Source: Alphaproteobacteria bacterium
GTDB lineage: Bacteria > Pseudomonadota > Alphaproteobacteria > UBA2966
Direction: 5' to 3'
NCBI GenBank assembly: GCA_018650465.1
Contig: JABIFY010000092.1
Coordinates: 15,477-79,476 of the forward strand
DNA length: 64,000 nt
Below the pieces are notes generated by a model. It was not told the origin of the DNA. It saw only the letters and a list, made by a program, of their open reading frames with translations, and made no database searches. A program made the translations under genes and the position numbers. Numbering within the stretch: the first letter of the stretch is position 1; each line of letters starts with the position of its first letter. Of the stretch, positions 5,158 through 62,995 are shown piece by piece.

Positions 5158-5429
5158 GGAAACATCAATTTGCAGTCAGAGGAAGTACAATTATCAGGCC
5201 GGTAAACCTGAAATTCGAAGAAATCAACGTTGCGGCTGTATCTCAATTAAATCAAGCCTATATAGATCACAATGTACACACCTGTAGCGTCCGGCCTGCC
5301 GGGTTTATACTGTTGAGTTCGACTTGATGAATTCAACCAGGTGAATCAGAGCGGGCAATCGACATAAAATAATACCCGCTTGGGCAACATCCGGTATTTG
5401 TGCGGGGCAATTAGTGATAATGGTAAGAA

Positions 5430-6902: not shown

Positions 6903-6980
6903 GGCAAACCCAGTTTAAACGGAACTGCTCTAATCGCTGAATATCTGGTAATTGGGCCCCGGACGTCCTATCTATGGTAG

Positions 6981-7382: not shown

Positions 7383-7414
7383 ATTTGGTGCAGACAGGTC
7401 TGGCTGGAAGCTGA

Positions 7415-8623: not shown

Positions 8624-8760
8624 TCAGGCGTACCCCGGTAATGAACAATGTTGAACTCGAACTTGCAAATCTTAACAGTTAATAGTTAAGAGATGATATG
8701 AGTAATTAACATTGTGAATTTCAACCCGGCCCCACGTCCCGAATGCAATGTTCTGCGTGG

Positions 8761-8790
8761 CTGACAATGACTGACAATGACTGCCAATGA
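8761..8790. repeat. 10-bp tandem direct repeat x3 (CTGACAATGA CTGACAATGA CTGCCAATGA)
   Basis: Seen directly. Lies in the 190-bp gap between the ispB stop (8815) and the cNMP-EAL start (8623). Confidence 0.9.
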
Positions 8791-8814
8791 CTAGCCCGTG
8801 GGCGTCAGTTGGTG

Positions 8815-11015: not shown

Positions 11016-11095
11016 TAAAAATCCCTTTTTTTGAAAAACCGCGATGAGGCAACGCTGCGCTTCCGTGAGACCCGGAAACGCTCTAGAATTCACCC

Positions 11096-11980: not shown

Positions 11981-11983
11981 ATT

Positions 11984-13123: not shown

Positions 13124-13138
13124 GAAACTGTTCCTGAA

Positions 13139-14335: not shown

Positions 14336-14344
14336 TCAAACTTT

Positions 14345-15250: not shown

Positions 15251-15365
15251 TCTATATAGCCCCTACTAAAGCGAGTCCGGTTTTACCCGAATTGCCTCGT
15301 TTCATTTTATCGTTGCTTTTCAATGCCTCGTCGTAATCCCGTGTTTCAGAACAAGGCTGAAACAC

Positions 15366-31286: not shown

Positions 31287-31297
31287 GTTTTTCACAT

Positions 31298-31651
31298 GTG
31301 ATCAAGCCACAAACCGCTCCTTCGCAGGGGCGGTTTTCTTTTGGAATCTGTCCAACTCCCCATTCTATCGAAAATGATATTAGGCTAATATTTGGTTCGG
31401 CTGGAGAAGCGGTCCTGTTGGCCAACGATACGCCTTATGGTCTGGCAGTCGCTGTATGGACGAAAAATTCTGCCCGGATGCATCGCCTGGGCCGCAAGAT
31501 TGAAGCCTGTATTCAATGGATGAATTGTTGGTTCTTGCGGGATCTCAGGACGCCGTTCGGCGGTTCAAAACCATCCGGTATTGGTCGCGAGGGCGGCGTG
31601 CATTCACTGGAATTCTATACCGATTTGCGTAATATCTGCGTCAAGCTTTAG
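31298..31651 (+). pseudogene. Remnant of an NAD-dependent aldehyde dehydrogenase (2-hydroxymuconic-semialdehyde-dehydrogenase-like), C-terminal about 95 aa only
   Basis: LLANDTPYGLAVAVWTKNSARMHRLGRKIEACIQWMNCWF...PFGGSKPSGIGREGG matches the ALDH C-terminus. The catalytic Cys and Rossmann domains are absent, and there is no upstream ALDH-coding frame. Confidence 0.7.
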
Positions 31652-47728: not shown

Positions 47729-48742
47729 ATGAAATCCATTGGTTTCACCCACTCTCTTGCCGTTGACGAAGCGCAAAGCCTGTTTGAATTTGATACGCCA
47801 GATCCCGTAGCGGTTGGCCGCGACTTACTGGTTGATGTCAAAGCTGTTTCCGTTAATCCGGCTGATGCCAAACGACGCCTTCGCACAGCCGTTGATGCCC
47901 CGCACGAAACCCCGCTGGTGTTGGGTTACGACGCTGTTGGTGTTGTGGCGGCGATTGGATCGGACGTATCAAACTTTGCTGTTGGCGATGAGGTCTGGTA
48001 CGCCGGAGATGCAAACCGCCCCGGCAGCAACGCCCAGCGCCAACTGGTCGACGAGCGTGTCGTGGGCCGCAAGCCGTCGAACCTTTCCTGGGCCGAAGCC
48101 GCGGCCATGCCGCTGACCGGACTGACATCGTTCGAGATGTTATTTGACCGCTTCGGTATTGCCGAAAGCAGCGGCAAGGGCAAATCCTTGTTGGTCATCG
48201 GCGGTGCCGGTGGTGTGGGATCGCTGACAATCCAGTTGGCCCGCAAACTGACAGACCTGACGGTAATCGCCACCGCGTCAAGGCCGGAAACCGCAGAATG
48301 GTGCCGGGAAATGGGCGCCCATGAAATTGTTGATCACCGTGATCTGGTCGCTGAGGTTCAGGGCAAAGGCTTTGAAACCGTTGAATATATTGCCAATTAC
48401 GCCGACACCTCGCAGCACTGGGACGCCATGTCGACGCTGGTAGCACCGCAAGGCAAGCTGGGCTGCATCGTTGAAACCGACGATCTGATCGATGTCACCA
48501 GTCTGCAAGGAAAATCGGCTTCCCTGCATTGGGAATTGATGTTTACCCGTTCCATGTTTGGCACCGATGATGTGGCCCGCCAGCACGATATTCTGAACCG
48601 TATCGCGGATCTGGTGGAGAGTGGCGATATCCGTTCGACCCTGCGCCAAACTTTGAACGGTTTTTCGGCCGATGTGCTGAAAGACGGGCACCGGATCATC
48701 GAAACCGGCCAGGTATTCGGCAAGCTGGTCATCGAATACTGA
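47729..48742 (+). CDS. Zinc-independent MDR-family quinone oxidoreductase/alcohol dehydrogenase (YhdH/Qor-like)
   Basis: MDR fold with nucleotide-binding loop VIGGAGGVGS. Confidence 0.75.
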   Translation: MKSIGFTHSLAVDEAQSLFEFDTPDPVAVGRDLLVDVKAVSVNPADAKRRLRTAVDAPHETPLVLGYDAVGVVAAIGSDVSNFAVGDEVWYAGDANRPGSNAQRQLVDERVVGRKPSNLSWAEAAAMPLTGLTSFEMLFDRFGIAESSGKGKSLLVIGGAGGVGSLTIQLARKLTDLTVIATASRPETAEWCREMGAHEIVDHRDLVAEVQGKGFETVEYIANYADTSQHWDAMSTLVAPQGKLGCIVETDDLIDVTSLQGKSASLHWELMFTRSMFGTDDVARQHDILNRIADLVESGDIRSTLRQTLNGFSADVLKDGHRIIETGQVFGKLVIEY

Positions 48743-48774
48743 AGCGAATATCAAGCCTGATTCCATAAGGAAAA

Positions 48775-48841
48775 GCGGCGGCATTTTGTAGCAATTGAGA
48801 CCCTTTTTGGGATCATTTTGTCGCAAATGCTGCCGTTTTTT
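48775..48841. terminator. Candidate bidirectional terminator (long compound hairpin + T6)
   Basis: GCGGCGGCATTTTG ... CAAATGCTGCCG stem with an inner ACCC-TTTTT-GGG hairpin. Flanked by aaaa and tttttt. Lies between the convergent MDR and galE genes. Confidence 0.35.
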
Positions 48842-48847
48842 ATGGAT

Positions 48848-49867
48848 TCAGGACGTTATTTCAGGTGTGAAACGCTTTCGGTGCCAGGCCCAGGCATCAG
48901 TGACAATCGTCTCGATATCGCTGCGCACAGCTTGCCAGGAAAGTAATTTATACGCTAATGACGGATCGGCCACCAGGCGGGGTGGATCACCGGCACGTCT
49001 GGCTGCATCGGTCGTTGGAATTGTTGACCCCGTCACCCGACTGGCGGCATCGATCACTTCGCGCACTGAGGCACCCGTGCCGGTCCCGAGATTAAGCGCC
49101 AGGGATTTTCCGTCTTTCAGTAAATGATCGAGCGCCGCTACATGGGCCCGGGCCAAATCCGAGACGTGAATATAATCACGCACGGCGGTGCCGTCGGCGG
49201 TTGCATAATCATTGCCAAAAATCCGGATCCCGTCTCGTCTACCCAGGGCCGCATCCAGGATGATTGGAATGAGATGGGTTTCAGGATTGTGATGTTCACC
49301 GATTTCTTCATCCGGGTCTGCTCCCGCCGCGTTGAAATACCGCAAACAGGCCGAGCGCAAGCCGTGGTCCACGCCGGACGCCTGGATCATTTCTTCACAG
49401 GCAAGCTTGGTTTCGCCATAGGGGTTGCCAGGCTTTTTGCCGGCGGCTTCGTCAATCAGATCGACGTCCGGTTCGCCAAAGATTGCGGCGGTTGATGAAA
49501 ACACCAGGGGCGGAACGTTGCCAGAGAATTCAGATGTCGTCATGGCGTCCAGCAAATTCCGGGTGCCACCACAATTAACTTGTTTGTACAAATCCGGTTG
49601 TTCTACCGATTGGCCCACCAGCGAGAGGGCGGCAAAGTGCATCACGGCGATGGGCCGGGTTTGTGCGACAGCATCTTTTAAGGCGACCGCATCCCGCACG
49701 TCGCCCTCGATGACCGGTCCCCAGCGAACAAAGTCCCGATGGCCGGTGCTGAAATTATCAAACACGACGGGCGCATAACCTGCCTTGGCCAATGCCTTGG
49801 CGCAATGGCTGCCGACATACCCGGCCCCGCCGGTGACAAGAATATTTTTTTGTTCCTGTTTCGTCAT
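48848..49867 (-). CDS. galE: UDP-glucose 4-epimerase
   Basis: ILVTGGAGYVGSH Rossmann motif, YxxxK and overall GalE colinearity. Confidence 0.85.
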   Translation of the reverse strand: MTKQEQKNILVTGGAGYVGSHCAKALAKAGYAPVVFDNFSTGHRDFVRWGPVIEGDVRDAVALKDAVAQTRPIAVMHFAALSLVGQSVEQPDLYKQVNCGGTRNLLDAMTTSEFSGNVPPLVFSSTAAIFGEPDVDLIDEAAGKKPGNPYGETKLACEEMIQASGVDHGLRSACLRYFNAAGADPDEEIGEHHNPETHLIPIILDAALGRRDGIRIFGNDYATADGTAVRDYIHVSDLARAHVAALDHLLKDGKSLALNLGTGTGASVREVIDAASRVTGSTIPTTDAARRAGDPPRLVADPSLAYKLLSWQAVRSDIETIVTDAWAWHRKRFTPEITS

Positions 49868-49952
49868 TTGCCGTGATCATAGGGCGGTAATTGAGACCTG
49901 ACGAGGCGGCAAAAGACAAATATCTTGACTCCCAAATACCGTTTGCATACTA

Positions 49953-50825
49953 ATGATTAATACATTGACTGGGAGGGAAGTTCTGTTGCGTTATTTCCTG
50001 CCGGATACGGTTGCTGAGGCGACCGCCGGACTAGCTGAAAAAAATTATCGGATCGTTGCGGGCGGCACGGATTTTTACCCCGCCCTGGCTGATCAGCCTG
50101 TGCGCGACGACGTCATGGATATTTCCGGCCTGCAAGCTTTGCGCGGCATCGCCCGGGAAACCAAACACACCCGCATTGGTGCCCTTGCCACCTGGACAGA
50201 TATTGCCCGGGCGGAGCTGCCAAATAAATTCCGCGGCCTGCAACTGGCGGCGCGTGAAGTGGGGGCTTTGCAAATACAGAATGTGGCGACCGTTGCAGGC
50301 AATCTTTGCAATGCCTCGCCCGCGGCGGACGGCGTGCCGCCCCTGTTGACCCTGAATGCGCAAGTCGAAATCTCCGCTGCGAACGGCCAGCGTGTTTTAC
50401 CGCTGGATCAGTTCATCCTTGGCAACAGGCGCACGGCGCTGGAGCCAAATGAAATGCTGACCGCCATTTTGATCCCGAATGATGCAGAAGCGGCAAACAG
50501 TCATTTTATGAAACTGGGCTCCCGGCAATATCTGGTTATCTCCTACGTCATGGTGGCGACTTTGCTGGAAGCAGACGATTCCGGCATTATCACCCAGGCC
50601 CGGGTTTCGGTTGGCGCCTGTTCCGAGGTGGCGTGCCGTCTTGCCGATCTTGAAGCGGCACTCGTTGGGCAACCCTTGACAACGACCAGTGCTGTCGTGC
50701 GGCCCGACCATCTGTCCATCCTTGCGCCCATCGATGATATTCGGGCGTCGGCTGATTATCGCCTGGCGGCAGCGTTGGAATATACCAGGCGCAGCCTTTC
50801 GGCCTGTACGGAGGGTCTGTTATGA
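49953..50825 (+). CDS. Xanthine-dehydrogenase-family FAD-binding subunit (CoxM/XdhB-like)
   Basis: RIVAGGTDFYP FAD-binding motif and C-terminal CO-dehydrogenase flavoprotein domain. Confidence 0.8.
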   Translation: MINTLTGREVLLRYFLPDTVAEATAGLAEKNYRIVAGGTDFYPALADQPVRDDVMDISGLQALRGIARETKHTRIGALATWTDIARAELPNKFRGLQLAAREVGALQIQNVATVAGNLCNASPAADGVPPLLTLNAQVEISAANGQRVLPLDQFILGNRRTALEPNEMLTAILIPNDAEAANSHFMKLGSRQYLVISYVMVATLLEADDSGIITQARVSVGACSEVACRLADLEAALVGQPLTTTSAVVRPDHLSILAPIDDIRASADYRLAAALEYTRRSLSACTEGLL

Positions 50826-53581
50826 CATCACCTGGTACGAGTGGGTCTGTCGACTTTTCCCTGAACGGAAAACCGGTTTCAGTTTCCGTTGATCCCACGC
50901 GTCGGCTGTCACAAGTGCTGCGCGAAGACCTTGGTCAGACCGGCACCAAAATAGGTTGTAATGCGGGCGACTGCGGGGCCTGTACGGTGTTGGCCGATGG
51001 CCTTTCGGTTTGTGCCTGCATGGTACCTGTCGGGCGGTTGCAGGGTGCGCAAATCCAGACCGTGGAGGGATTGGCTGAAGCGGGCATTCCCAATCGACTG
51101 CAAAAAGCATTTTTGCATTTTGGCGCCGCCCAGTGTGGCATTTGTACGCCGGGTATGTTGATGGCGGCCACCGCATTGCTGGCGGAAAACGCCCGTCCCG
51201 ATGAAGCCCAGGTAAAAGACGCGCTGGGCGGTGTGCTTTGCCGCTGTACAGGATATCGCAAGATCATCCAGGCGGTGATGGCTGCCCATGATTTTGATGC
51301 CGAACCTTTGCGGGCTGAAACCGGCACGGCAGTGGGCACTCGCCTTAACCGGCTTGATGGTGAAGAAAAGGTTCTCGGCACAGATTTGTTTGGTGATGAC
51401 GTTGCTGGACAAGGTGCACTCGTCCTCAAGGTTATTCGCTCACCTTATCATCGGGCGTCATTTTCCTTCGGGGATACAGGCGGGTTACTGGTGACAACAC
51501 CTGGCCTGATCAAAATCCTGACCGCCAGCGATATTCCGGGCAGAAATTTACATGGCGTTATTCCGGATACTGTCGATCAACCAGTCTTTGCCGTGGCTGA
51601 AACCCGTTTCAAGGGCGAGGCGATTGCTGCCGTGGTTGGGGATGCCGACGCCGTGGACAAGTTTGATGTGTCGGACTTTCCCGTGACCTGGACGGAACGA
51701 CCCGCGTACCTGACGCCGGAAAAGGCTTTGGCTGACAATGCACCCCTGATACATGCCAACCGGCCCGGAAATATCCTGATGAACGGCATCGTGCAGCGCG
51801 GTGATCTGGCGGCCGGCTTCGCGCACAAAGACGCCACGATTGCCGAAGGCGATTTCATCACCGGCTTTGTTGAGCACGGTTATATTGAACCGGAAGCGGG
51901 CCTGGCCCAACGTGTGGGCGACCGACTTGAAATGCATGTTTGCACCCAGTCGCCCTATATGGATCGCGATGACACGGCAGCTATTCTTGGTATCGCCAAA
52001 GAAGATGTGCGCATCATACCGACGGCGGTTGGCGGTGGCTTTGGCAGCAAGCTTGATCTCTCGGTCCAGCCCTATATCGCACTGGCCGCCTGGTTGCTGG
52101 ATCGCCCTGTGCGCATGACCTACAGCCGCCAGGAAACCATGATGTCGACAACCAAACGACATCCTTCAGCCATCAAGGCCAGAATCTCTGCAGACAAACA
52201 GGGCAAGCTGTTATCCATGGATTTCAACGGCGTGTTCAACACCGGGGCCTATGCTTCGTGGGGACCGACGGTTGGCAATCGGGTGCCGGTACATGCCTCG
52301 GGTCCTTATATATATGATGCCTATCGCGCCCGCAGTCAGGCGGTGCATACCCATTGCGTGCCGTCCGGTGCCTTCCGGGGATTTGGTGTGCCGCAATCTT
52401 CCATTGTGCAGGAAACCCTGTTTGATGAACTGGCGGACAAGCTGGCCATTGATCGGCTGGACTTTCGTTTGCGCAACGCCCTGGTGAACGGTGCAACGAC
52501 GGTTTGTGGCCAGGTCTTCAGCGAAGGTGTGGGCATCAAGGATTGCCTGCAAAGTCTGAAACCCCATTGGGACCGGGCCTTGTCTGAAGCTGATGGTTTC
52601 AATGCCGCATCAGATGGCAGCTTGCGACGCGGTGTGGGTGTGGCGGGCATGTGGTACGGCTGTGGCAACACGTCGCTGCCCAATCCGTCGACCATCAAGG
52701 TTGCCATTCGCAATGATGGCCAGGTGGTTCTGTTCCAGGGTGCTGTGGATGTGGGGCAGGGGGCCAACACCGTTATCACACAAATCTGTGCTGATGCCGC
52801 AGGCCTGGACATCCTCAATTTTTCTCTTGTCTATGGTGATACCGATCTAACGGCGGACGCGGGTAAAACCTCAGCCTCACGCCAAACCTTTATCAGTGGC
52901 AAGGCGTCATACCTCGCGGGCCAGGATTTGCGCAAAAAAATCCTGCGTATGGTCAATGCCAGTGAAGATGCGCGCCTCGCCATTAATGGCAGCAAAATTA
53001 CCGCCATCGATACAGCCGGGCGAAATGATATCGATCTGGCTGCCTTGCCGGCGGATGAAGATGGATTTGTCTTTACTGGTGAAGGAACCTTTGATCCACC
53101 TACCGTGGCCCTCGATGAAAATGGCCAGGGTGAACCCTATGCGGTTTTTGGATATGGCGCACATATGATGGAACTGGAAGTCGATACCCGCCTGGGCACG
53201 GTACGCTTGATCAAGCTGACGGCCGCCCATGATGTGGGCAAAGCCATTAACCCAACCCTGATTGAAGGCCAGATCGAAGGCGGTGCAGCCCAGGGACTGG
53301 GCCTCGCTCTGATGGAAGAATTTGTGCCGGGCCGCACCGAAAATCTGCACGATTATTTGATTCCGACCATTGGCGATGTGCCCGAGGTGGAATCGATCCT
53401 TGTTGAAGTGCCCAACGCACATGGTCCTTACGGGGCCAAAGGCATAGGTGAACAAGTTCTGATCCCGACTGCGCCAGCCATCCTCAATGCCATCCGACAT
53501 GCCACGGGTGCGGTTTTACGGGATATGCCCGCAACGCCAGAAAAAGTGCGCAATGCAGTTTTGCGGGCGAAAGGGAATTAG
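50822..53581 (+). CDS. Xanthine-dehydrogenase-family fused [2Fe-2S] + molybdopterin-binding subunit
   Basis: N-terminal plant-type and second 2Fe-2S Cys motifs (CNAGDCGACTV; CGICTPG). Large aldehyde-oxidase/XDH Mo-binding body. 4-nt overlap with the FAD subunit. Confidence 0.8.
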   Translation: MTSPGTSGSVDFSLNGKPVSVSVDPTRRLSQVLREDLGQTGTKIGCNAGDCGACTVLADGLSVCACMVPVGRLQGAQIQTVEGLAEAGIPNRLQKAFLHFGAAQCGICTPGMLMAATALLAENARPDEAQVKDALGGVLCRCTGYRKIIQAVMAAHDFDAEPLRAETGTAVGTRLNRLDGEEKVLGTDLFGDDVAGQGALVLKVIRSPYHRASFSFGDTGGLLVTTPGLIKILTASDIPGRNLHGVIPDTVDQPVFAVAETRFKGEAIAAVVGDADAVDKFDVSDFPVTWTERPAYLTPEKALADNAPLIHANRPGNILMNGIVQRGDLAAGFAHKDATIAEGDFITGFVEHGYIEPEAGLAQRVGDRLEMHVCTQSPYMDRDDTAAILGIAKEDVRIIPTAVGGGFGSKLDLSVQPYIALAAWLLDRPVRMTYSRQETMMSTTKRHPSAIKARISADKQGKLLSMDFNGVFNTGAYASWGPTVGNRVPVHASGPYIYDAYRARSQAVHTHCVPSGAFRGFGVPQSSIVQETLFDELADKLAIDRLDFRLRNALVNGATTVCGQVFSEGVGIKDCLQSLKPHWDRALSEADGFNAASDGSLRRGVGVAGMWYGCGNTSLPNPSTIKVAIRNDGQVVLFQGAVDVGQGANTVITQICADAAGLDILNFSLVYGDTDLTADAGKTSASRQTFISGKASYLAGQDLRKKILRMVNASEDARLAINGSKITAIDTAGRNDIDLAALPADEDGFVFTGEGTFDPPTVALDENGQGEPYAVFGYGAHMMELEVDTRLGTVRLIKLTAAHDVGKAINPTLIEGQIEGGAAQGLGLALMEEFVPGRTENLHDYLIPTIGDVPEVESILVEVPNAHGPYGAKGIGEQVLIPTAPAILNAIRHATGAVLRDMPATPEKVRNAVLRAKGN

Positions 53582-53583
53582 TG

Positions 53584-55080
53584 ATGCCAGATGACAAAGA
53601 AGACCTCGTCGTTTGTGATGCCTGCCCGGTACGTTGTCGCATCAAACAAGGCCGCCCCGGTGCGTGCGATCGATATGCAAATGTTGATGGCCTGCTGACC
53701 CGCGTTGACCCGCTAACCGTGGTTGAACGGGCCGAAACCCACGGCACACCCCTGGTGCCTTTCCTGAAAAATGATCAGGAATGGAGCGGTGATCTGGTGC
53801 AGTCTGAAAACACCTTTGTCACTGCTGTGGGTGCTGGCACCACCTATCCCGACTATAAACCGGCCCCTTTCATAGTCTCCAGCGAGGTGGACGGTGTGGA
53901 TATGGTGACCGTGGTCACAGAAGGCATCTACAGCTACTGCGGCGTCAAGATCAAGGTCGATACAGATCGCCACCTGGGCCATGAAGCCGCCTCAGTACGG
54001 GTCGACGGCGAAGTCGTTGGCCATGTCACGACAGGTGAATACGGATCACAAATGATGTCCCTCGGCGGTGTTGCCCATCTGACCGGCGGCAGTAAAAAAG
54101 AAGGCCGCGTGACCTGTCAGACCCTGATGGATTTGTGCAATTGCAAGCCGGTCAAGCTGACGATTGATGACGGCGTGTCGATCATTGTTGAGGCCGGCAA
54201 GGCCCCGATCATTGATGACGTGACGGAGGAACGCATGCGCGTTGGTTGTGGCTCCGCCGCAATCGGTATGTTCGCCATGCAGTGGCAGCCCCTGGTCGAC
54301 GAAGTCGTTGTGGTAGATGATCACATCACCGGCGTGATGTCAGAACACGAAGCCGGAAAAGTTCTGGATGTACCGCCCACGGGTATTTCCATCAACGGCC
54401 GTCGCTCGACCCCCGGTCGCTATTTCAAGGTCGCCGAACCAGGTACGGGTTGGGGTGGTACAGATATCAGCGATCCCCTGTCGATCCTCAACGACTTTAA
54501 GCCAGCAGATGCCAAACCAGGCACAACCCTGTTGATGGTCTCGACCACCGGCGAACATTATGCTTATTTTGTGCTGGACGATAATCTGAAACCTGTCGAA
54601 GAACCCTTGCCGGATGTCTTGATGGCCTCGGTCGAACGGGTGCGGGAAAATTGTGAACCGGCATTATGTTCTGTGTTGTTCATTGGCGGTGCCGGTGGCT
54701 CGCTTCGGGCAGGCGTTACCGAAAATCCCGTCAAGCTGACCATGTCCGTGAAGGACGCCTTGACCAATGTTACCAGCGGCGGAGCGGAAACCTTTGTCTG
54801 GCCTGGCGGGGGCATTACCTACATGGTCGACGTGACGCGCATGCCTGAAAATTCCTTTGGTTATGTCCCCACACCGGCCATCGTCGCCCCCATCGAATTT
54901 TCCATGCGTCTTGAAGATTACGCGGCCCTGGGTGGCCATATGGAGTCGATTGTGCCTTTGGCCGAGGTGCTAAAGGATCCGAACCTTCGTCCTGTGGAAC
55001 AGGGCGAAAGTTCCTGGCCCATGGAAAAGAGCCAGTATAAATGGCCAGATGAGCAAAAAGACGAGCGCAAAGATGAATAG
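53584..55080 (+). CDS. Cys-rich conserved protein, possible 6-hydroxynicotinate-reductase (Hnr)-like
   Basis: N-terminal CDACPVRCRIKQGRPGACDRY Cys cluster. No other fold recognisable by eye. Starts 3 nt after the Mo-subunit stop. Confidence 0.45.
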   Translation: MPDDKEDLVVCDACPVRCRIKQGRPGACDRYANVDGLLTRVDPLTVVERAETHGTPLVPFLKNDQEWSGDLVQSENTFVTAVGAGTTYPDYKPAPFIVSSEVDGVDMVTVVTEGIYSYCGVKIKVDTDRHLGHEAASVRVDGEVVGHVTTGEYGSQMMSLGGVAHLTGGSKKEGRVTCQTLMDLCNCKPVKLTIDDGVSIIVEAGKAPIIDDVTEERMRVGCGSAAIGMFAMQWQPLVDEVVVVDDHITGVMSEHEAGKVLDVPPTGISINGRRSTPGRYFKVAEPGTGWGGTDISDPLSILNDFKPADAKPGTTLLMVSTTGEHYAYFVLDDNLKPVEEPLPDVLMASVERVRENCEPALCSVLFIGGAGGSLRAGVTENPVKLTMSVKDALTNVTSGGAETFVWPGGGITYMVDVTRMPENSFGYVPTPAIVAPIEFSMRLEDYAALGGHMESIVPLAEVLKDPNLRPVEQGESSWPMEKSQYKWPDEQKDERKDE

Positions 55081-56173
55081 CGCTTTTGCCCGCATTTTGC
55101 CCGACGGCAAACGCCTGCATTTGCAGCAAGGCCCCATTGATCTGGTGATCGATGCAGATGGCGATGAGGCTGAAGTTGCCTTGGCTTTTGAGCAGGCGAT
55201 GCGGGCCTTCGAGCCTGTGTTGACGGATTTGGTAGCGGAATTGGAAGTGTTGCGGAAGGTCCTGGCGCCACACTCCTCTACCGTCATGCGCGGGCTTGAC
55301 CCGCGTACCCACGCCTTCGGGGAACAGGTCTGCCAGAAGGCGAATTTCCTGAGTTCTGCATCATCCTCAAATGACCAGAGTTCTGCGCCTGAAGATAAAT
55401 GCCGTCAAGACGTGGGTACCCGTGTCAAGCACGGGCATGACGGACGTGGGGTGCAGTTTTACGATCCGAATAAATCCAATCCTGTCGCGAACATCATGAC
55501 ATCCGCCGCAGCCAACTTCGCAGCCCACAACGTCAGCCCCATGATCGCCGTCGCCGGGTCCGTCGCCGACTACATCCTGGATAAAATGCTGGCAGGGCGA
55601 ACGCTGAATCGAGTCTACGTCAATAACGGTGGCGATATATCACTGTATCTGAACGACGGCCACAGCTTTGATATCGGTATCGTCGACCGGGTTGATGCAC
55701 CCGAAATTTCCGCCACGGCTCATATCACATCCAATGACACCGTTCGTGGCGTCGCGACCAGCGGCTGGAGAGGACGCAGTTTCTCGCTTGGTGTGGCTGA
55801 CGCGGTAACCGTCCTTGCCCCGACGGCGGCTCTGGCAGACGCTGCCGCAACTCTGATCGCCAATGAAGTTGATCCCGGCCCTTGTTTTGAAATTTCCCGC
55901 ACGCCGGCCCATGACCTGGACCCCGACAGTGACCTCGGCGCACGACTGGTGACAACCGATGTCCAGCCTTTGTCGGCCCGGCAAAAAGACCTGGCCCTGC
56001 AACGCGGTCAGGACCTGGCCCGGACTTTTGTTCGGGACGGTTTGATCACGGCTGCTGCCTTGTCCCTGCAGGGCAGTACGCGCATGGCCGGGGACCTCAA
56101 TCCCAAAATTAGTCTCAATAACAACGTTGCCCCAAACAATCCTGATCCGGAGAAAAAATATGCCCGCGGTTGA
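55073..56173 (+). CDS. Conserved hypothetical protein (C-terminal region possibly UPF0280/ApbE-like)
   Basis: ATG overlaps the upstream stop by 8 nt. Segment PMIAVAGSVADYILDKM...VYVNNGGDISL is weakly reminiscent of UPF0280. Confidence 0.35.
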   Translation: MNSAFARILPDGKRLHLQQGPIDLVIDADGDEAEVALAFEQAMRAFEPVLTDLVAELEVLRKVLAPHSSTVMRGLDPRTHAFGEQVCQKANFLSSASSSNDQSSAPEDKCRQDVGTRVKHGHDGRGVQFYDPNKSNPVANIMTSAAANFAAHNVSPMIAVAGSVADYILDKMLAGRTLNRVYVNNGGDISLYLNDGHSFDIGIVDRVDAPEISATAHITSNDTVRGVATSGWRGRSFSLGVADAVTVLAPTAALADAAATLIANEVDPGPCFEISRTPAHDLDPDSDLGARLVTTDVQPLSARQKDLALQRGQDLARTFVRDGLITAAALSLQGSTRMAGDLNPKISLNNNVAPNNPDPEKKYARG

Positions 56174-56744
56174 ACTCAGAAAACAAATCATATCCGTCGA
56201 GGAAACCTGGCACGAAGGTGGCCCGGTTGCACAAACACCCAACCGCCGGGCCAGTGGCATGATCATCATCAAAAATCCCTTCGCCGGAAAATATGTGGAA
56301 GATATCCAGCCTTTCATTGAAGATCTGAAACCCTTTGGTCTGGCCCTGGCGACTGCTGTGCTGGATGCTCTGGGTGGCGATGGTTCTGCCATTGAAGGTT
56401 ATGGCAAGGGTGCCATCATCGGCGAGGCCGGAGAGCTGGAGCATGGTGCCCTGTGGCATCCCGCCGGTGGTTATGCCATGCGGGCCCTGTTGGATGGCAC
56501 CAAGGCCATTGTTGCCTCAACCAAAAAAGTTGGTGGGGTCGGGGCCCGGCTGGATGTACCGATCACCCATACCAATGCATCTTATGTGCGCAGTCATTTT
56601 GATGCCATGGAAGTGGGCTGCAATGATGCGCCGCGCGCCAACGAGCTGGCCTACATACTGGTCATGAGCACCGGACCCCGCGTCCACAGCCGGTCTGGCG
56701 GTCTGGAAGTAGCCGACGTTAAAGGAGAGGATGGATTAAAATGA
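56160..56744 (+). CDS. Amino-acid-synthesis family (PF06684/DUF1185-like) protein, paralogue 1
   Basis: Shared motifs with the downstream paralogue: NPFAG, GELEH, YVRSHFDAMEV, NDAPRANE. Confidence 0.45.
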   Translation: MPAVELRKQIISVEETWHEGGPVAQTPNRRASGMIIIKNPFAGKYVEDIQPFIEDLKPFGLALATAVLDALGGDGSAIEGYGKGAIIGEAGELEHGALWHPAGGYAMRALLDGTKAIVASTKKVGGVGARLDVPITHTNASYVRSHFDAMEVGCNDAPRANELAYILVMSTGPRVHSRSGGLEVADVKGEDGLK

Positions 56745-57328
56745 CTACTGCAATAATTCGCAAGATCATCACTGTTGTCGACGAAACTCACATTGAAATG
56801 GGCAAGGCCATCTCGCCCGCAACCCGGCGGGCTGCGGCCATCGCCGTCATCGCCAACCCCTTTGCGGGCAGCTATACGGAAGACCTCGATCCTCTGATGG
56901 AAATCGGTGCGGAGCTGGGCGGTATATTGGGCGCGCGCGCCGTTGAGGCTTTGGGGATCACGCCGGAGCAGGCCGAGAGCTATGGCAAAGCGGCCATCGT
57001 TGGTGAAAATGGTGAGTTGGAACATGCAGCTGCAATTTTACATCCCAAACTGGGTGCCCCCTTGCGCAAGGCCGTCGAAAAGGGTGCTGCTCTGGTGCCT
57101 TCTGCCAAGAAGATGGGCGGTCCTGGTACGCCCATGGATGTGCCCCTCGGTCACAAGGAAGCCGCCTATGTGCGCAGCCATTTCGATGCCATGGAAGTGC
57201 GCGTCAATGATGCCCCGCGGGCCAATGAAATTCTGGTCGCCGTTTGTGTCACGGACAGCGGGCGGCCTTTGCCAAGGGTCGGTGGTCTGACCCATGAAGA
57301 TGCCGAAGGCAAAGACGGCTTGCGCTAG
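56741..57328 (+). CDS. Amino-acid-synthesis family (PF06684/DUF1185-like) protein, paralogue 2
   Basis: About 45-50% identical to paralogue 1 over the full length. 4-nt overlap. Confidence 0.45.
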   Translation: MTTAIIRKIITVVDETHIEMGKAISPATRRAAAIAVIANPFAGSYTEDLDPLMEIGAELGGILGARAVEALGITPEQAESYGKAAIVGENGELEHAAAILHPKLGAPLRKAVEKGAALVPSAKKMGGPGTPMDVPLGHKEAAYVRSHFDAMEVRVNDAPRANEILVAVCVTDSGRPLPRVGGLTHEDAEGKDGLR

Positions 57329-57342
57329 GCTGGACCCCGAAT

Positions 57343-58401
57343 ATGCAATTCATCCATAACAGCTGGTACGTGGCAGGTTGGTCGAAAGAGTTCACGCGTG
57401 AGCTAAGCAAAGCCACGATCCTTGGCGAAAACATCGTCTTCTACCGCACTGAAGCCGGCACCGTTACGGCCCTGGAAGATCGTTGTCCGCATAAACTGTT
57501 GCCTTTGTCCGAAGGTCGGTTGATCGGTGATGATTTGCAGTGCGGTTATCACGGCGTGACCTTTGGCTGCGACGGTAAATGTGTGCGGGTGCCGGGCCAA
57601 TCAGTGCTGCCTAAAAGCGCCTGGGTGCGCCACTTCCCCACGTTCGAGCGTCACAATATTGTCTGGATCTGGATGGGTGATGAGGGCAAAGCGGATGAAA
57701 GTCTGGTCTTTGATTTGCCGGAACTTTCCAGTCCTGACTATGCGCCGCACCAGGGCAATCCGCTGCCTTATGCCTCAAACTATCTGAATGTGGCCGACAA
57801 TCTGTGCGACCCGGCCCATGTCAGTTTCGTGCACCCGACAACGCTGGGCAATCCTGAGATGGAGGATTTGCCTATTGATTCCGAAATGACGGGGGATGGC
57901 ACAGTGATTACCTCGCGCTGGACCCGCGATACCCCGCCTGTGGGTGTGTTTCAGGGACTGTCGGGCTTTGGCGTGAATTTCCGGGGCAACGTAGATCGCT
58001 GGCAATATTACATCATGAATGTGCCGTGTGTGGCCGTGATCGATTTTGGCAGTGCTGAGGTCTCGCAAGAAATAACTTATGACCGACGGGCGGAAGGTGT
58101 GCATATATATGCCATTCATTTTCTGACGCCCGTGGACGAGTTCCGCACGATTGATCGTTGGATGCATGTGCGAAATTTTGCTCTGCAGGACAAAGCCGTC
58201 GGTGGTGCCATGAATGATCTTTTTAATGTGGCCTTCGCCGAAGATAAAGTTATCCTCGAGGCGATCCAGATTGAGGAACGCCGCCCCAGATCAGCTGAGC
58301 AAGAACAACGACGGCCCTTGCGCATTGCTATCGACAAGGGATCAAACCTCTATCGTCGTCGTATTGATGAGTTGATCAAACAGGAACAGGTGAATGACTG
58401 A
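57343..58401 (+). CDS. Rieske non-haem iron oxygenase alpha subunit, VanA/GbcA/NdmA family
   Basis: Rieske CPHK...CGYHG, mononuclear-Fe motif DNLCDPAHVSFVH. Colinear with the vanillate O-demethylase oxygenase N-terminus (WYVAG...IVFYR...ALEDRCPH). Confidence 0.75.
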   Translation: MQFIHNSWYVAGWSKEFTRELSKATILGENIVFYRTEAGTVTALEDRCPHKLLPLSEGRLIGDDLQCGYHGVTFGCDGKCVRVPGQSVLPKSAWVRHFPTFERHNIVWIWMGDEGKADESLVFDLPELSSPDYAPHQGNPLPYASNYLNVADNLCDPAHVSFVHPTTLGNPEMEDLPIDSEMTGDGTVITSRWTRDTPPVGVFQGLSGFGVNFRGNVDRWQYYIMNVPCVAVIDFGSAEVSQEITYDRRAEGVHIYAIHFLTPVDEFRTIDRWMHVRNFALQDKAVGGAMNDLFNVAFAEDKVILEAIQIEERRPRSAEQEQRRPLRIAIDKGSNLYRRRIDELIKQEQVND

Positions 58402-58819
58402 AGATCGGAAAGGCTACGCCCTGGACGATCAGGTCGGGTTTATCCTGCGCGAAGTTGGCCAGCGCCACAGCACGATTTTTGCGGGCAAGATGATTGAGCG
58501 CCTCACGCCCACCCAGTTTGCCGCCATGGCCAAGCTGATCGAGGTCGGTGATTGTTCGCAAAATCAACTGGGCCGCCACACAGCGATGGATGTGGCCACG
58601 ATCAAGGGCGTTGTGGATCGTTTGGCCAAGCGCGGATTTGTGGACAGTCATGCCGACGACAAAGACGCCCGCCGCCGTATCGTTTGCCTGACCGATACGG
58701 GTCGCGATGTGGCCTTGCGGGCCATCCAGGTTGCGGGAGACATCACCCGGGAAACATTGAAACCCTTGTCAGAAGCCGGGCAAAAACAGCTGCTGAAGCT
58801 GTTGAGGGAATTACGTTAA
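58394..58819 (+). CDS. MarR family transcriptional regulator
   Basis: Winged-helix segment LTPTQFAAMAKL...QNQLGRHTAMDVATIKGVVDRLAKRGFV...DARRR. Confidence 0.75.
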   Translation: MTEDRKGYALDDQVGFILREVGQRHSTIFAGKMIERLTPTQFAAMAKLIEVGDCSQNQLGRHTAMDVATIKGVVDRLAKRGFVDSHADDKDARRRIVCLTDTGRDVALRAIQVAGDITRETLKPLSEAGQKQLLKLLRELR

Positions 58820-58867
58820 TCGGGCATTCTGGCCCAAATCAAAATAGCATGACAGGGAAGTAATATA

Positions 58868-59974
58868 ATGAAAACACGTGCAGCCATCGCCACCCAGGCC
58901 GGAAAACCGCTTGTTATTGAAGAAGTCGATCTGGACGGACCACAGCCCGGCGAGGTTCTGGTTGAAATCAAGGCGACAGGCGTTTGTCACACGGATGCTT
59001 TCACCCTGTCTGGCGATGATCCGGAAGGGGCCTTTCCGGCGATCCTGGGTCACGAAGGGGCCGGTATTGTGCGGGAAATTGGCAAAGGCGTAACTTCCGT
59101 GGAAGTGGGCGATCATGTGATCCCGCTTTACACGCCCGAGTGCCGGGAATGCGAATACTGCCTCAATCACAAGACCAATCTTTGTCAGTGCATTCGGGAA
59201 ACCCAGGGTGCGGGGGTCATGCCCGATGGCTCCAGCCGCTTTTCCCTGAACGGCAAAAAAATCCTGCATTATATGGGCTGTTCTACCTTTTCGAATTTTA
59301 CCGTGTTGCCGGAAATTGCCGTCGCCAAGGTGCGTAAAGACGCGCCGTTTGAACAAATTTGTTATATCGGTTGCGGTGTCACAACCGGCGTCGGGGCCGT
59401 CGCCCTGGATGCCAAGGTCGAGCCCGGCTCCAACGTCGTGGTCTTTGGCCTCGGCGGCATTGGCCTGAATGTGGTGCAGGGTGCGCGCATGGTGGGGGCC
59501 AACAAGATTATCGGCGTCGATCTGAATGATGGCCGGGTGGAGTTGGCGAAAAAATTCGGCATGACCGACTTCATCAACCCCAGTGAATGCGACAATGTTG
59601 TCGAAGCCATCATGGATATGACCAATGGGGGTGCTGATTATTCCTTCGAATGTATCGGCAATACCATGACCATGCGTCAGGCCCTGGAATGCTGTCACAA
59701 GGGTTGGGGCGAAAGCATCATCATTGGCGTCGCTGGTGCCGGTCAGGAAATTTCCACGCGCCCGTTCCAGCTGGTTACCGGCCGGGTCTGGCGTGGTACA
59801 GCCTTTGGCGGCGCCCGTGGCCGGACTGATGTGCCAAAGATTGTCGACTGGTACATGGACGGCAAAATCAACATCGACGACTTGATCACCCACACCATGC
59901 CGTTGGATGAAATCAACAATGCTTTCGATCTGATGCACAAGGGCGAGTCAATTCGCTCTGTTGTTTTGTATTAG
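58868..59974 (+). CDS. frmA: S-(hydroxymethyl)glutathione dehydrogenase / class III alcohol dehydrogenase
   Basis: Colinear with ADH3 ([50 protein letters not shown]). Confidence 0.85.
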
Positions 59975-60014
59975 GAACGATTATTTTTGGCGACTACTCT
60001 GGGGGGAAAGAACA

Positions 60015-61172
60015 ATGTCTAAACTTGTCATCAAAAATATCGGCCTGGTGCTCAGTGGCGATCTGGATAATCCGGTGTTGGATGCGGACACTATCGCCAC
60101 AGAAGATGGCAAGATCACCGGCATTGGGGCTGAGAAAGACTTTGATCAGGAAGGGGCCACGGTCGTTGATGCCAAAGGCACGACTGTCACCCCCGGTCTG
60201 ATCGACAGCCATGTGCACCCGGTCGCGGGCGACTGGACCCCACGTCAAAGCCAGCTCAACTGGATCGATTCAAGCTTGCATGGTGGCGTCACCACCATGA
60301 TCTCGGCCGGCGAGGTGCACTATCCAGGACGGGCCAAGGATATCGTTGGCCTGAAAGCGCTGGCGATCACGGCGCAGCGAGCCTTTGATAATCTGCGCCC
60401 CTCGGGGGTCAAGGTGCATGCCGGTGCGCCGGTCATTGAACAGGGCATGGTCGAACAGGATTTCAAAGAGTTGGCCGAGGCTGGCGTAAAACTGCTGGGT
60501 GAAATTGGCCTGGGCAGCGTCAAGGCCGGGGCGGAGGCCAAACAGATGGTCACCTGGGCCCGAAAATATGGCATTCAAAGTACCATCCACACCGGTGGCC
60601 CTTCCATTCCAGGCTCTGGCCTGATCGACAAGGACGTGGTGCTGGAAGCTGATGCCGATATCATCGGCCACATCAATGGCGGGCACACGGCTTTGCCTGA
60701 CGACCAGATCACCTGTCTTTGTGAAAGCTGCGGTCGTGGCATCGAAATCGTGCATAACGGCAACGAGCGCTCCGCTCTGCTGGCCCTGAATTGCGCTCGT
60801 GAACTGAAGCAGATGGAACGCGTTATCCTTGGCACGGACGGCCCGGCTGGTTCCGGTGTACAGCCCTTGGGAATTTTGCGTATGGTGTCCATGTTGTCAG
60901 CCCTGGGCCAGGTGCCCGCAGAAATCGCCCTGTGTTTTGCCACCGGCAATACGGCCCGCATGCGTGATCTGAATTGCGGCATTATCGAAGTCGGACGTGA
61001 GGCCGATTTTGTGATTATGGACCGGGCCCAGCATTCTCCGGCGGAAACCATTCTGGAGAGTATCCAGCTTGGTGATCTGCCGGGCGTCGGCATGACCATT
61101 ATTGATGGTGTCATCCGCAGCGAACGCAGCCGCAATACCCCACCCGCCAACACCCTGCCCGAAGTAATCTAG
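60015..61172 (+). CDS. Amidohydrolase-superfamily protein, enamidase-like
   Basis: MSKLVIKNIGLVLSGD N-terminus. Metal-binding HVHPV. Size and layout are consistent with the single-domain amidohydrolase group that includes enamidase. Strong SD (GGGGGGAAAG) upstream. Confidence 0.55.
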   Translation: MSKLVIKNIGLVLSGDLDNPVLDADTIATEDGKITGIGAEKDFDQEGATVVDAKGTTVTPGLIDSHVHPVAGDWTPRQSQLNWIDSSLHGGVTTMISAGEVHYPGRAKDIVGLKALAITAQRAFDNLRPSGVKVHAGAPVIEQGMVEQDFKELAEAGVKLLGEIGLGSVKAGAEAKQMVTWARKYGIQSTIHTGGPSIPGSGLIDKDVVLEADADIIGHINGGHTALPDDQITCLCESCGRGIEIVHNGNERSALLALNCARELKQMERVILGTDGPAGSGVQPLGILRMVSMLSALGQVPAEIALCFATGNTARMRDLNCGIIEVGREADFVIMDRAQHSPAETILESIQLGDLPGVGMTIIDGVIRSERSRNTPPANTLPEVI

Positions 61173-61285
61173 CTATCTGTTATTAAACAATAAATCAAAT
61201 ATCTGGCGACAAGGCTTGAACCGGACCCGTAATCAGGTTTGAATCGTTCAAAATCCCTTTCCTTCGAAACCCACAGGACCCCGTC

Positions 61286-62995
61286 ATGCGTAAACATTTG
61301 ACCCTCAATCTTGCCACCCGCGACGCCAGCAGCAAAACTGTTGAAGGCGAAGACCTGGCCCGTGCCGGGCGCTGGTTGATCGCCCGCACGTTGCTGGACG
61401 AAGGTGCGGCGACCGTTGATCCCCTGTCGCCAGGTAACCCGCTGATTTTTTCTGCCGGTCCGTTTGCAGGCACCAACTTCTCCAATGCCAACCGTTTGTC
61501 TGTAGGCTGCAAAAGCCCGCTGACCGGTGGCATCAAGGAAGCGAACTCTGGTGGTACATTCGCTTACGCCATGGGCCAGAACGAAATGTCCGGCATTACC
61601 TTCTGCGAGGCTTCGGACGATTGGGTTGTCATCCACATCAACAAAGAAGGCGATGTAACTTACGATGATGCCACGCCTTACATGGGCAAAAGCAACTTCG
61701 AAGCCGCCGATATGCTGATCGAAAAATACGGCAAGAAAATCTCCTATGCCCTGTGCGGTCCCGTCGGCGAATACCAGGGCCTGATGTCGGCCATCGCTTT
61801 CCCCGATCCTGAAGGTGGCCCAACCCGCTTTGCCGCCCGTGGTGGCGTGGGCGCCGTGATGGGCAGCAAAAAGGTCAAGGCTGTGATCATCGAACAGATC
61901 AAGATGCCAACCTTTGTGGACCGTAAAAAGGTCATGAGCCACGTCAAGGACTATGGTGCCAAACTGGGCGAGGAAGCCGCTATTCAAACTTTTGCTGATT
62001 ACGGCACCGCCATTGTGGCCGACCTCACCAACAAGATCGGCGGGCTGCCGGTGAACAATTTCAGCAAGGGCCAGCAGGTCAACTCCAAGGAACAAACCTT
62101 CGAGATGGGCGGCACCTTTATTCACGACCTGAACAAATCCCGTGGCGGCGAAACGACCCACGCCTGCATGCCGGGCTGCTTGATCCGTTGCAGCAATAAC
62201 TTTCATGGTGAAGACGGCGAATCCATTACCGCCCCGCTGGAATATGAAACCATCGGCTTGATGGGTACCAACTGTGGTCTGACCCACCCCGACCAGGTGG
62301 CGCGGGTCAACCAGGTGGCCAATGATTTGGGCATCGATACCATCGAAATCGGTTGCACCATCGGCGTACTGATGGAAGCAGGCGAGGGCGAATTTGGTGA
62401 CGAAGCCTTTATGATGCAGGTGCTGGAAGATATCCGCGCTGGCAATGAAAAGGGCAAACTATATGCGCAAGGCACCCAGCGGGTCGGCGAACATTTTAAC
62501 GTCAAACGCATTCCCGCCATCAAGAAACAAGGCATCAGTGCCTATGACCCGCGTGTGATCGAGGTCACAGGTATGAGCATGATGTTAACCGCCCAGGGCG
62601 CGGATCATACGGCCGGAAACATGCCGGGCTATCCTTGCAAAGACAAGACCACCGAAGACCTGATGGCCGTCAGCATGGACAGCCAAATGAACTGCGCCGC
62701 CGCCGACAGCCTCGGCCTGTGCATCTTTGGTCGCTCGGTGACCGAAACCAATTCCCAGCTGATCGTCGATGCCATCAACGCCGCCTTTGGCACCAGCCTG
62801 GAGCCATCCTTCGTGCCGAAACTGGGCACTGCCGCCCTGAAACTGGAAGACGAGTTCAACCGCGCCGCTGGCTTCACCGCAGCCGACGACGAACTGCCTG
62901 ACTTCTTCAACACCGAAGCGCTTGCCCCCACCGGCAAAACCAACCGCCACCAGGTGGGCGACCTGCATACCTTCCGCGAAAACTGGTGGAATTAA
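61286..62995 (+). CDS. Aldehyde:ferredoxin oxidoreductase (AOR) family tungsto/molybdo-pterin enzyme
   Basis: AOR N-terminal domain (LIFSAGPFAGT, SVGCKSPLTGG, RGGVGAVMGSKKVKAVII). 4Fe-4S and pterin region (HACMPGCLIRCSN, LEYETIGLMGTNCGL). Confidence 0.75.
   Translation: MRKHLTLNLATRDASSKTVEGEDLARAGRWLIARTLLDEGAATVDPLSPGNPLIFSAGPFAGTNFSNANRLSVGCKSPLTGGIKEANSGGTFAYAMGQNEMSGITFCEASDDWVVIHINKEGDVTYDDATPYMGKSNFEAADMLIEKYGKKISYALCGPVGEYQGLMSAIAFPDPEGGPTRFAARGGVGAVMGSKKVKAVIIEQIKMPTFVDRKKVMSHVKDYGAKLGEEAAIQTFADYGTAIVADLTNKIGGLPVNNFSKGQQVNSKEQTFEMGGTFIHDLNKSRGGETTHACMPGCLIRCSNNFHGEDGESITAPLEYETIGLMGTNCGLTHPDQVARVNQVANDLGIDTIEIGCTIGVLMEAGEGEFGDEAFMMQVLEDIRAGNEKGKLYAQGTQRVGEHFNVKRIPAIKKQGISAYDPRVIEVTGMSMMLTAQGADHTAGNMPGYPCKDKTTEDLMAVSMDSQMNCAAADSLGLCIFGRSVTETNSQLIVDAINAAFGTSLEPSFVPKLGTAALKLEDEFNRAAGFTAADDELPDFFNTEALAPTGKTNRHQVGDLHTFRENWWN

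Follow-up and report, generated by a model that had tools for sequence, protein, structure and literature searches.

A VanA/DdmC-type Rieske oxygenase as an optional accessory of tetrahydro-6-oxonicotinate clusters, with a possible role as a demethylating feeder enzyme of nicotinate catabolism

We analyzed a 64,000-nucleotide window of DNA from an Alphaproteobacteria bacterium (lineage UBA2966; assembly GCA_018650465.1, contig JABIFY010000092.1, forward-strand positions 15,477 to 79,476), focusing on three genes located between window positions 57343 and 59974, which encode a Rieske oxygenase, a MarR-family regulator and the formaldehyde dehydrogenase FrmA. The trio is embedded in a nicotinate operon and consists of three genes with three different evolutionary associations; the oxygenase among them is an optional accessory of marine gene clusters for the tetrahydro-6-oxonicotinate (THON) route of nicotinate catabolism. 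With slightly less than even confidence, we propose that the oxygenase is a demethylating feeder enzyme of the nicotinate pathway, for which trigonelline would be the most plausible substrate and from which the methyl group would leave as formaldehyde.

The first gene of the trio (57343-58401, plus strand, as are all genes described below for the operon) encodes a Rieske non-heme-iron monooxygenase of the VanA/DdmC type with 352 residues, which matches the Pfam profiles Rieske (PF00355, E = 2.6e-20) and VanA_C (PF19112, E = 3.8e-39, 193 of 193 profile positions). The start of the second gene (58394-58819), which encodes a NicR-like MarR-family regulator of 141 residues (MarR, PF01047, E = 2e-10), overlaps the oxygenase stop by 8 bp. 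The third gene, frmA (58868-59974), begins 48 bp after the MarR gene, ends 40 bp before an enamidase gene and encodes a glutathione-dependent formaldehyde dehydrogenase (class III alcohol dehydrogenase, ADH) of 368 residues. FrmA scored 631 bits against TIGR02818, the equivalog profile for class III ADH/S-(hydroxymethyl)glutathione dehydrogenase (cutoff 544), and matched human ADH5 with E = 1.5e-151 over residues 2-366. These profile scores agree with an original prediction, made from the letters of the window, which had named a VanA-type oxygenase, a MarR regulator and a glutathione-dependent formaldehyde dehydrogenase at exactly these coordinates.

The trio lies within a same-strand array of genes (49953-62995) in which the gaps between genes measure 0-113 bp, and sequence matches assign this array to the THON route, the enzyme activities being predicted ones. 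The THON route is known from Eubacterium barkeri and Azorhizobium caulinodans. A corresponding cluster, described for A. caulinodans and other proteobacteria, covers the first three steps and includes an ATP-binding cassette (ABC) transporter and two unknown proteins (PMC3511419). The combination that marks such a cluster, namely Hnr (6-hydroxynicotinate reductase), enamidase and a nicotinate hydroxylase side by side, was found in the array by sequence matches to all three. The array begins with the FAD subunit (49953-50825; Pfam FAD_binding_5 and CO_deh_flav_C) and the fused 2Fe-2S/molybdenum subunit (50822-53581; Fer2, Fer2_2, Ald_Xan_dh_C and MoCoBD_1/2) of a xanthine dehydrogenase (XDH)-type molybdenum hydroxylase, which is presumed to be nicotinate 6-hydroxylase. 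The next gene (53581-55080) encodes an Hnr homologue of 499 residues, which is 65-68% identical to plasmid genes annotated as 6-hydroxynicotinate reductase or hnr. Downstream of the trio lies an orthologue of enamidase, the ring-opening amidohydrolase of THON (60015-61172; PDB 2vun, E = 2.7e-114), whose alignment to 2vun begins at query residue 19, matching the ATG at 60015. The remaining genes encode a conserved unknown UPF0280/ApbE_bact protein (55049-56173; NCBIfam PRK04334), two conserved unknown AA_synth (DUF1185) proteins (56127-56744 and 56741-57328; Pfam AA_synth; PDB 2qtp, E = 1.7e-95) and, as the final gene, an aldehyde:ferredoxin oxidoreductase (AFOR) family protein (61286-62995; Pfam AFOR_N and AFOR_C). 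The window and the described clusters have in common the nicotinate hydroxylase, Hnr, enamidase, MarR, UPF0280 and both AA_synth genes; the described clusters carry the ABC transporter and no Rieske oxygenase or frmA, whereas the reverse holds for the window, which also encodes AFOR.

Scanning one genome per species, we identified 525 loci encoding a relative of the oxygenase and took the best 80 (53-85% identity) for a census of neighbouring genes, conducted by tblastn within 10 kb of the oxygenase; all counts out of 80 refer to these best 80 of the 525 loci, and single loci are cited by number. An all-against-all clustering of the open reading frames (ORFs) of the 80 loci was noisy (antisense ORFs, GC-rich DNA) and supplied candidates only; Pfam and tblastn served to confirm them. 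The 120 best-scoring protein clusters were 54-88% identical to the oxygenase, except for one truncated copy with 100% identity. The best-scoring 80 loci span Rhodobacterales, Hyphomicrobiales, Kiloniellaceae, Kordiimonadales and Granulosicoccaceae, and include Pelagibius, Roseibium, Stappia, Labrenzia, Salipiger, Sulfitobacter, Planktotalea, Cohaesibacter, Geminicoccaceae and Minwuia. Most frequent among the neighbours were an ABC substrate-binding protein (67/80) and an ABC permease (63/80), followed by Hnr (57/80), AA_synth (56/80), MarR (54/80), UPF0280 (53/80) and the molybdenum and FAD subunits of the hydroxylase (51/80 and 48/80). Enamidase was found in 24 and HyuA, an apparent alternative ring opener, in 23 of the 80 loci; the less frequent neighbours were an Fpr-type ferredoxin-NADP reductase (FNR, 14/80), an adrenodoxin-type ferredoxin (13/80), a thioredoxin reductase (TrxR)-like ferredoxin reductase (8/80), AFOR (7/80) and FrmA (1/80). 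The oxygenase gene lies between AA_synth and a transporter gene in more than 50 loci, which represent at least six families of Alphaproteobacteria as well as Granulosicoccaceae.

Complete THON clusters without the oxygenase were found in Neorhizobium, on a Comamonadaceae plasmid, in Paracoccaceae La6 and in Sulfitobacter mediterraneus; the core pathway therefore does not include the oxygenase as a step, and marine THON clusters carry it as an optional accessory. UPF0280 and AA_synth proteins are encoded in the oxygenase-less clusters as well. In S. mediterraneus the same XDH-type hydroxylase, together with enamidase and fpr, occurs without the oxygenase, so that a strict coupling of the oxygenase to the XDH-type hydroxylase was rejected. 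The comparison shows that the THON cluster is modular, with hydroxylase type, transporter type, ring opener, electron supply, oxygenase and frmA varying independently, and this modularity stands whatever the substrate of the oxygenase. Enamidase and the hydantoinase/oxoprolinase-like HyuAB were mutually exclusive across the 80 loci, bar one paralogue with 28% identity, and look like alternative THON ring openers.

The oxygenase groups with the demethylating and monooxygenating alpha3 Rieske enzymes and not with ring-dihydroxylating ones; the grouping with ring-hydroxylating members that the original prediction had named as its refutation was thus not observed. Among PDB entries, only the dicamba O-demethylase DdmC (also termed DMO; E = 2.6e-40) and the guaiacol O-demethylase GdmA (7qwt, E = 5.5e-35; PMC12445004) matched the sequence over its full length, whereas the matches to other solved Rieske oxygenases were confined to the Rieske domain. 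Identity to DdmC is 29-31%. An AlphaFold model of the oxygenase (pLDDT 88.8) gave Foldseek TM scores of 0.87-0.91 to DMO and 0.85 to GdmA, compared with lower values for the more distant hydroxylases and N-demethylases (0.71-0.78 to SxtT/GxtA, about 0.7 to NdmA/B and about 0.65 to KshA), and no alpha3beta3 ring-dihydroxylating dioxygenase occurred among the 50 best fold matches of the model. The protein contains the elements of a VanA/DdmC-type enzyme, i.e. the Rieske motif CxH...CxxH, the 2-His-1-carboxylate triad with a bridging Asp and the VanA_C fold. The Rieske ligands C48, H50, C67 and H70 (DMO C49, H51, C68 and H71) are intact and invariant in 20 clade members; the mononuclear iron ligands are H159, H164 and D301 (DMO H160, H165 and D294), and N153 and D156 are also conserved. 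The ratio of nonsynonymous to synonymous divergence (dN/dS) of the oxygenase between the window and related contigs is 0.04-0.05, which together with the intact ligands led us to reject a decaying relic, an idea prompted by the missing transporter and partners.

Four residues, W220, D234, D271 and H275, are invariant in the clade and differ in DdmC, GdmA and a sister clade with 41% identity (K, Y, Q); in the sister clade, D234 and D271 are replaced by K or Y. D234 aligns exactly with DMO N230 by HMMER and one position off by MAFFT, so that the correspondence holds within one or two residues. H259 is conserved and aligns with DMO H251, which we take to be the carboxylate-binding residue of DMO, and DMO W285 aligns with L293. 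The two extra acidic residues and the retained His are suggestive, in that they would be compatible with a cationic carboxylate as substrate, and we regard them as a hint only. Orthology to VanAB was not observed: tblastn detected no VanB homologue in the window, no NCBIfam equivalog was matched, and the context is that of nicotinate, not of vanillate or protocatechuate. Nor was full-length homology to Ndm-type enzymes found, as only residues 26-179, the Rieske domain, align (55-57 bits), although an Ndm-like function could exist despite this. The oxygenase clade is a widespread group of uncharacterised VanA/DdmC-family members for which a specific candidate function can now be named.

We further considered the electron supply of the oxygenase. 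The original prediction had noted that no reductase partner is encoded nearby, and this holds for the full window: FAD_binding_6, NAD_binding_1, Pyr_redox_2 and free-standing Fer2 domains were absent from all ORFs of at least 100 residues, and tblastn with the adrenodoxin-type ferredoxin, Fpr-type FNR, TrxR-like reductase and VanB-type reductase of relatives gave nothing significant. Most of the 80 loci likewise have neither redox partner close by, and the missing adjacent reductase is therefore typical of the clade and not peculiar to the island of the window. In Kiloniellaceae, Pelagibius and Cohaesibacter, a 343-residue Pyr_redox_2 (TrxR-like) reductase and a 105-residue adrenodoxin-type ferredoxin are encoded directly upstream of the oxygenase, an order (reductase-ferredoxin-oxygenase) found in 8/80 loci, with the ferredoxin criterion alone giving 13/80. 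This arrangement indicates a three-component system like DdmABC, and a TrxR-like reductase and an adrenodoxin-type ferredoxin are likely to be the partners missing here, perhaps encoded elsewhere in the genome of this organism. A Paraburkholderia relative with 41% identity has a VanB-type reductase gene adjoining the oxygenase. The Fpr-type FNR was rejected as the oxygenase partner, since clusters lacking the oxygenase encode it too; Hnr is the more likely recipient of its electrons.

The two other genes of the trio have associations of their own. The MarR protein is 47% identical to the MarR encoded beside hnr in the oxygenase-less Neorhizobium cluster and 51% identical to a regulator annotated as nicR on an oxygenase-less marine Paracoccaceae plasmid (CP031593). 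Because such homologues adjoin hnr in clusters without the oxygenase, we consider MarR to be a regulator of the nicotinate cluster; judged by sequence, it belongs to the nicotinate pathway and is not dedicated to the oxygenase. In Pseudomonas putida, operator binding by NicR is relieved by 6-hydroxynicotinate. A search for palindromic operators or inverted repeats in four intergenic regions yielded none.

With respect to frmA, three metagenome contigs, whose oxygenase identities are 88% and 80%, repeat the gene order Rieske-MarR-frmA-enamidase-AFOR. The closest genome, L007, a metagenome-assembled genome of an alphaproteobacterium from Saanich Inlet whose oxygenase is 85% identical, has the same genes with the ABC transporter lying between Rieske and MarR, and it is the sole frmA-adjacent case of the census. 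Synonymous divergence between the window and related contigs is saturated (dS > 1), with dN/dS of 0.01-0.09 for all genes tested; FrmA is 95-98% identical in L001 and L007, with dN/dS of 0.014-0.025. The adjacency of frmA in this lineage is thus not due to chance, is old and is under purifying selection, although it may trace to a single event, because the frmA-bearing contigs form one lineage. As MarR is a nicotinate-cluster regulator also where the oxygenase is absent and frmA adjoins the oxygenase in a single locus of the 80, the discrete three-gene module envisaged by the original prediction does not hold; the observation was confirmed, and its interpretation is partly supported.

In L007, the transporter between the oxygenase and MarR comprises four genes (11072-15694 of that locus): a substrate-binding protein of the 3i45 type, a fused permease and two ATPases. 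This four-gene transporter, which is the constant neighbour of the oxygenase in most relatives and stands between it and MarR there too, is absent from the window and from the three metagenome contigs; it has been lost in the lineage of the window, leaving the MarR gene overlapping the oxygenase stop. Nicotinate clusters that lack the oxygenase contain the same transporter type (substrate-binding protein 53-60% identical, fused permease), as seen on a Comamonadaceae plasmid, in Rhizobium lusitanum and in Roseomonas, and therefore the transporter is not specific to the oxygenase. For this reason, we rejected the idea that the oxygenase and transporter form a dedicated module for betaine uptake and conversion. 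In the Roseomonas plasmid cluster, an FAD-dependent monooxygenase is annotated where NicC would be expected. PDB 3i45, the closest solved homologue of the substrate-binding protein of the relatives, presumably contains bound nicotinate.

The core pathway is oxygenase-free, the nearest characterised relatives of the oxygenase are demethylases and frmA is retained in the operon; for these reasons, we read the oxygenase as a demethylase that funnels a substrate into the nicotinate pathway. In the proposed mechanism, the oxygenase would hydroxylate a methyl group on a nicotinate derivative, most plausibly the N-methyl group of trigonelline or that of its 6-oxo product after the action of the molybdenum hydroxylase, and the hemiaminal would collapse to nicotinate (or 6-hydroxynicotinate) and formaldehyde. 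To reduce the Rieske centre, the enzyme would depend on two proteins encoded at a distance, an NAD(P)H:ferredoxin reductase and an adrenodoxin-type [2Fe-2S] ferredoxin, on the pattern of the three-component dicamba demethylase. Nicotinate would be converted to 6-hydroxynicotinate by the molybdenum hydroxylase, 6-hydroxynicotinate to THON by Hnr, and THON to 2-formylglutarate and ammonium by enamidase, whereas in this lineage FrmA would oxidise the released formaldehyde as S-hydroxymethylglutathione. MarR would act as a NicR-like repressor of the whole cluster.

We consider it fairly probable that the oxygenase attacks a methyl group, whether that of the favoured substrate or that of another methylated nicotinate, while trigonelline or its pyridone as the actual substrate is a possibility that we hold as doubtful. 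An oxygenase that is present in some clusters and absent from others, beside a complete core pathway, is the pattern expected of a funnelling enzyme. Trigonelline has been measured in seawater and phytoplankton (PMC8269262). As of 2024, a trigonelline demethylase gene was known in no organism, despite demethylating activity having been reported since 1983 (PMC10963276), and that the oxygenase clade represents this missing N-demethylase, at the head of a 'demethylate-first' route feeding THON and distinct from Tgn/Hom, is a tentative suggestion that may well prove wrong. Among the methylated compounds put forward by the original prediction, an N-methylpyridinium fits best, since the operon is one for nicotinate (Hnr, enamidase), and a methylxanthine does not fit; the latter was ruled out by the nicotinate specificity of the operon and the lack of purine or urate genes. 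Also relevant is the sister clade with 41% identity, represented by L090 (Alisedimentitalea plasmid, 3071-9038), in which the oxygenase gene follows four genes for sarcosine-oxidase-like subunits and precedes a Liv-type ABC transporter. This locus suggests another uncharacterised methylamine-type demethylation system, and we counted its neighbourhood of N-demethylation genes in favour of demethylation.

Several points weigh against the proposed demethylation of trigonelline. The VanA_C family includes non-demethylating monooxygenases too. The frmA gene is adjacent in one lineage only (1/80 genome loci plus three metagenome contigs), and neither fghA/frmB (esterase-D-type) nor gfa was found among the window ORFs scanned, although such a gene may lie elsewhere in the genome. 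The ABC transporter of the relatives is probably a nicotinate importer of general use, with no hint that it takes up betaines. Moreover, in the two characterised routes, Tgn for trigonelline and Hom for homarine, ring opening precedes demethylation (PMC13236597, PMC8269262), and our literature search retrieved no paper on the oxygenase clade and none on a Rieske trigonelline demethylase.

The main rival explanation, which we consider rather unlikely, is that the oxygenase hydroxylates a pyridine or pyridone ring (nicotinate, 6-hydroxynicotinate or a related N-heterocycle) and that frmA is a passenger. Its model is the quinoline pathway, in which the Rieske oxygenase OxoO acts after the molybdenum hydroxylase Qor, and FrmA would then serve housekeeping detoxification of formaldehyde or S-nitrosoglutathione, or would have an alcohol or aldehyde of the pathway, for instance 2-formylglutarate, as its substrate. 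Omega-hydroxy acids are further substrates of class III ADHs, and the recurrence of the oxygenase beside molybdenum hydroxylases, including at L089 where hnr is not nearby, the transporter that is probably a nicotinate importer and the rarity of the frmA adjacency all speak for such a hydroxylase. However, the THON route needs no hydroxylation beyond C6 and several clusters run without the oxygenase, the closest characterised relatives are demethylases, and FrmA is a canonical TIGR02818 equivalog conserved at 95-98%, unlike a recruited specialist.

The oxygenase might also be a demethylase or methyl-hydroxylase for a methylated nicotinate other than trigonelline, which we regard as distinctly unlikely. 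The target would be an O-methyl group, as in a methoxynicotinate, or a C-methyl group, as in a methylpyridine or methylnicotinate and as with TsaM, and the ADH and AFOR would oxidise the resulting alcohol or aldehyde. The best homologues are indeed aryl O-demethylases acting on aromatic carboxylates, the presumed carboxylate-binding His of DMO is retained as H259, and this lineage has, downstream of the oxygenase, genes for an ADH and an aldehyde oxidoreductase. However, the ADH is a canonical glutathione-dependent formaldehyde dehydrogenase, and most oxygenase-bearing clusters have neither AFOR nor frmA. To our knowledge, seawater contains no abundant natural methoxy- or methyl-nicotinate, whereas trigonelline has been measured there, as mentioned above. 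Finally, it is very improbable that the oxygenase is a mere neighbour of the nicotinate genes, e.g. a vanillate-like O-demethylase for lignin-type aromatics, as L067 and L020, which carry oxygenase and transporter with no hnr within 10 kb, might suggest, given that the same position (AA_synth-oxygenase-transporter) recurs in more than 50 loci and that vanB, protocatechuate or other aromatic-acid genes are not linked to the oxygenase.

Returning to the favoured reading of a demethylating feeder enzyme, we compared the system with characterised ones. The best match in both sequence and fold, DdmC/DMO of Stenotrophomonas maltophilia (PDB 3gb4, 3gke), has the same Rieske and iron ligands and VanA_C domain, acts on an aromatic carboxylate and releases formaldehyde. 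The DdmC system has three components, with the ferredoxin and reductase genes not located beside the oxygenase gene. It differs in overall sequence (about 30% identity), at the pocket positions (N230 at or next to D234, W285 versus L293, and the clade-specific D271 and H275) and in context, which is herbicide degradation for DdmC and the nicotinate pathway for the window oxygenase. GdmA of Rhizorhabdus wittichii (7qwt), the second-best full-length match, and the vanillate O-demethylase VanA are alpha3 VanA_C-type monooxygenases that also release formaldehyde; they use an adjacent VanB-type FMN/2Fe-2S reductase, whereas the oxygenase clade does not. NdmA and NdmB of P. putida CBB5 are Rieske N-demethylases of an N-heterocycle that release formaldehyde, and the gene group for caffeine N-demethylation, ndmABCDE, has frmA and frmB on its flanks (PMC4408171). 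The Ndm cluster encodes the NdmD reductase and frmB, whereas in the window frmA was found and frmB (fghA) was not. TgnAB and HomAB act on the same candidate substrate class, N-methylpyridine carboxylates from plants and phytoplankton, but in these systems a flavin-dependent two-component oxygenase opens the ring and the methyl group is removed later (PMC13236597), whereas demethylation would come first in the route that we propose; the window showed no recognisable tgn- or hom-like genes.

Trigonelline is a common metabolite of plants and phytoplankton and an NAD+ precursor in animals. If the proposal is true, the oxygenase gene would serve to trace a second sink of N-methylpyridine carboxylates in the sea, tied to an aerobic form of the 'anaerobic' nicotinate pathway that has received little study, and its product would represent a three-component VanA-type enzyme acting on a cationic heterocycle. 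Sulfitobacter pontiacus carries the oxygenase and S. mediterraneus lacks it, and the two species form a natural test pair.

Some further features of the operon were observed. The UPF0280/ApbE_bact gene always follows hnr, oxygenase-less clusters included. A covalent flavin in Hnr was reportedly described by Alhapel in 2006, and the UPF0280/ApbE_bact protein may attach it. In the window, this protein has a low-complexity N-terminal extension of about 75 residues, which overlaps the end of hnr, and the family match begins at residue 142. The AFOR protein is of the tungsten/molybdenum type, and related loci with AFOR include L041, L050, L064, L069, L071 and L076, whereas other clusters carry an Fpr-type FNR or a ferredoxin reductase plus ferredoxin. 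A possible function of AFOR is the oxidation of 2-formylglutarate or glutarate semialdehyde, by which low-potential electrons would be handed back to Hnr.

A conserved promoter-like stretch precedes the first operon gene (49914-49957, plus strand); it has the form TTGAC-N(17-19)-ACCGTTTGCATACTAATGA and is shared by the window with L001, where it lies at about 2690-2725, and partly with L007. A conserved ATG inside this stretch suggests that the FAD subunit may have been annotated with a start (49953) too far upstream. A hairpin scan detected 18 terminator-like sites in total, which is not above the shuffle mean of 14.6; the best-scoring one, a weak hairpin with eight pairs and a T-rich tail (59940-59959, plus strand), lies within the last codons of frmA and could separate a Rieske-MarR-frmA transcript from an enamidase-AFOR transcript.

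The nicotinate cluster is plasmid-borne in Sulfitobacter, Sagittula and Rhizobium. Over the nicotinate operon (48000-62000), GC content is 0.54-0.58, versus 0.48-0.52 over the window's initial 10 kb, a difference compatible with horizontal acquisition. Upstream, fliM is complete (30018-31286) and is followed after 12 bp by an ORF of 117 residues (the region ends at 31651) and then by genes of a meta-cleavage pathway. The similarity of this ORF to aldehyde dehydrogenases is confined to their C-terminal 80 residues, and the junction of fliM with it (30018-31651) looks like a rearrangement or an island boundary.

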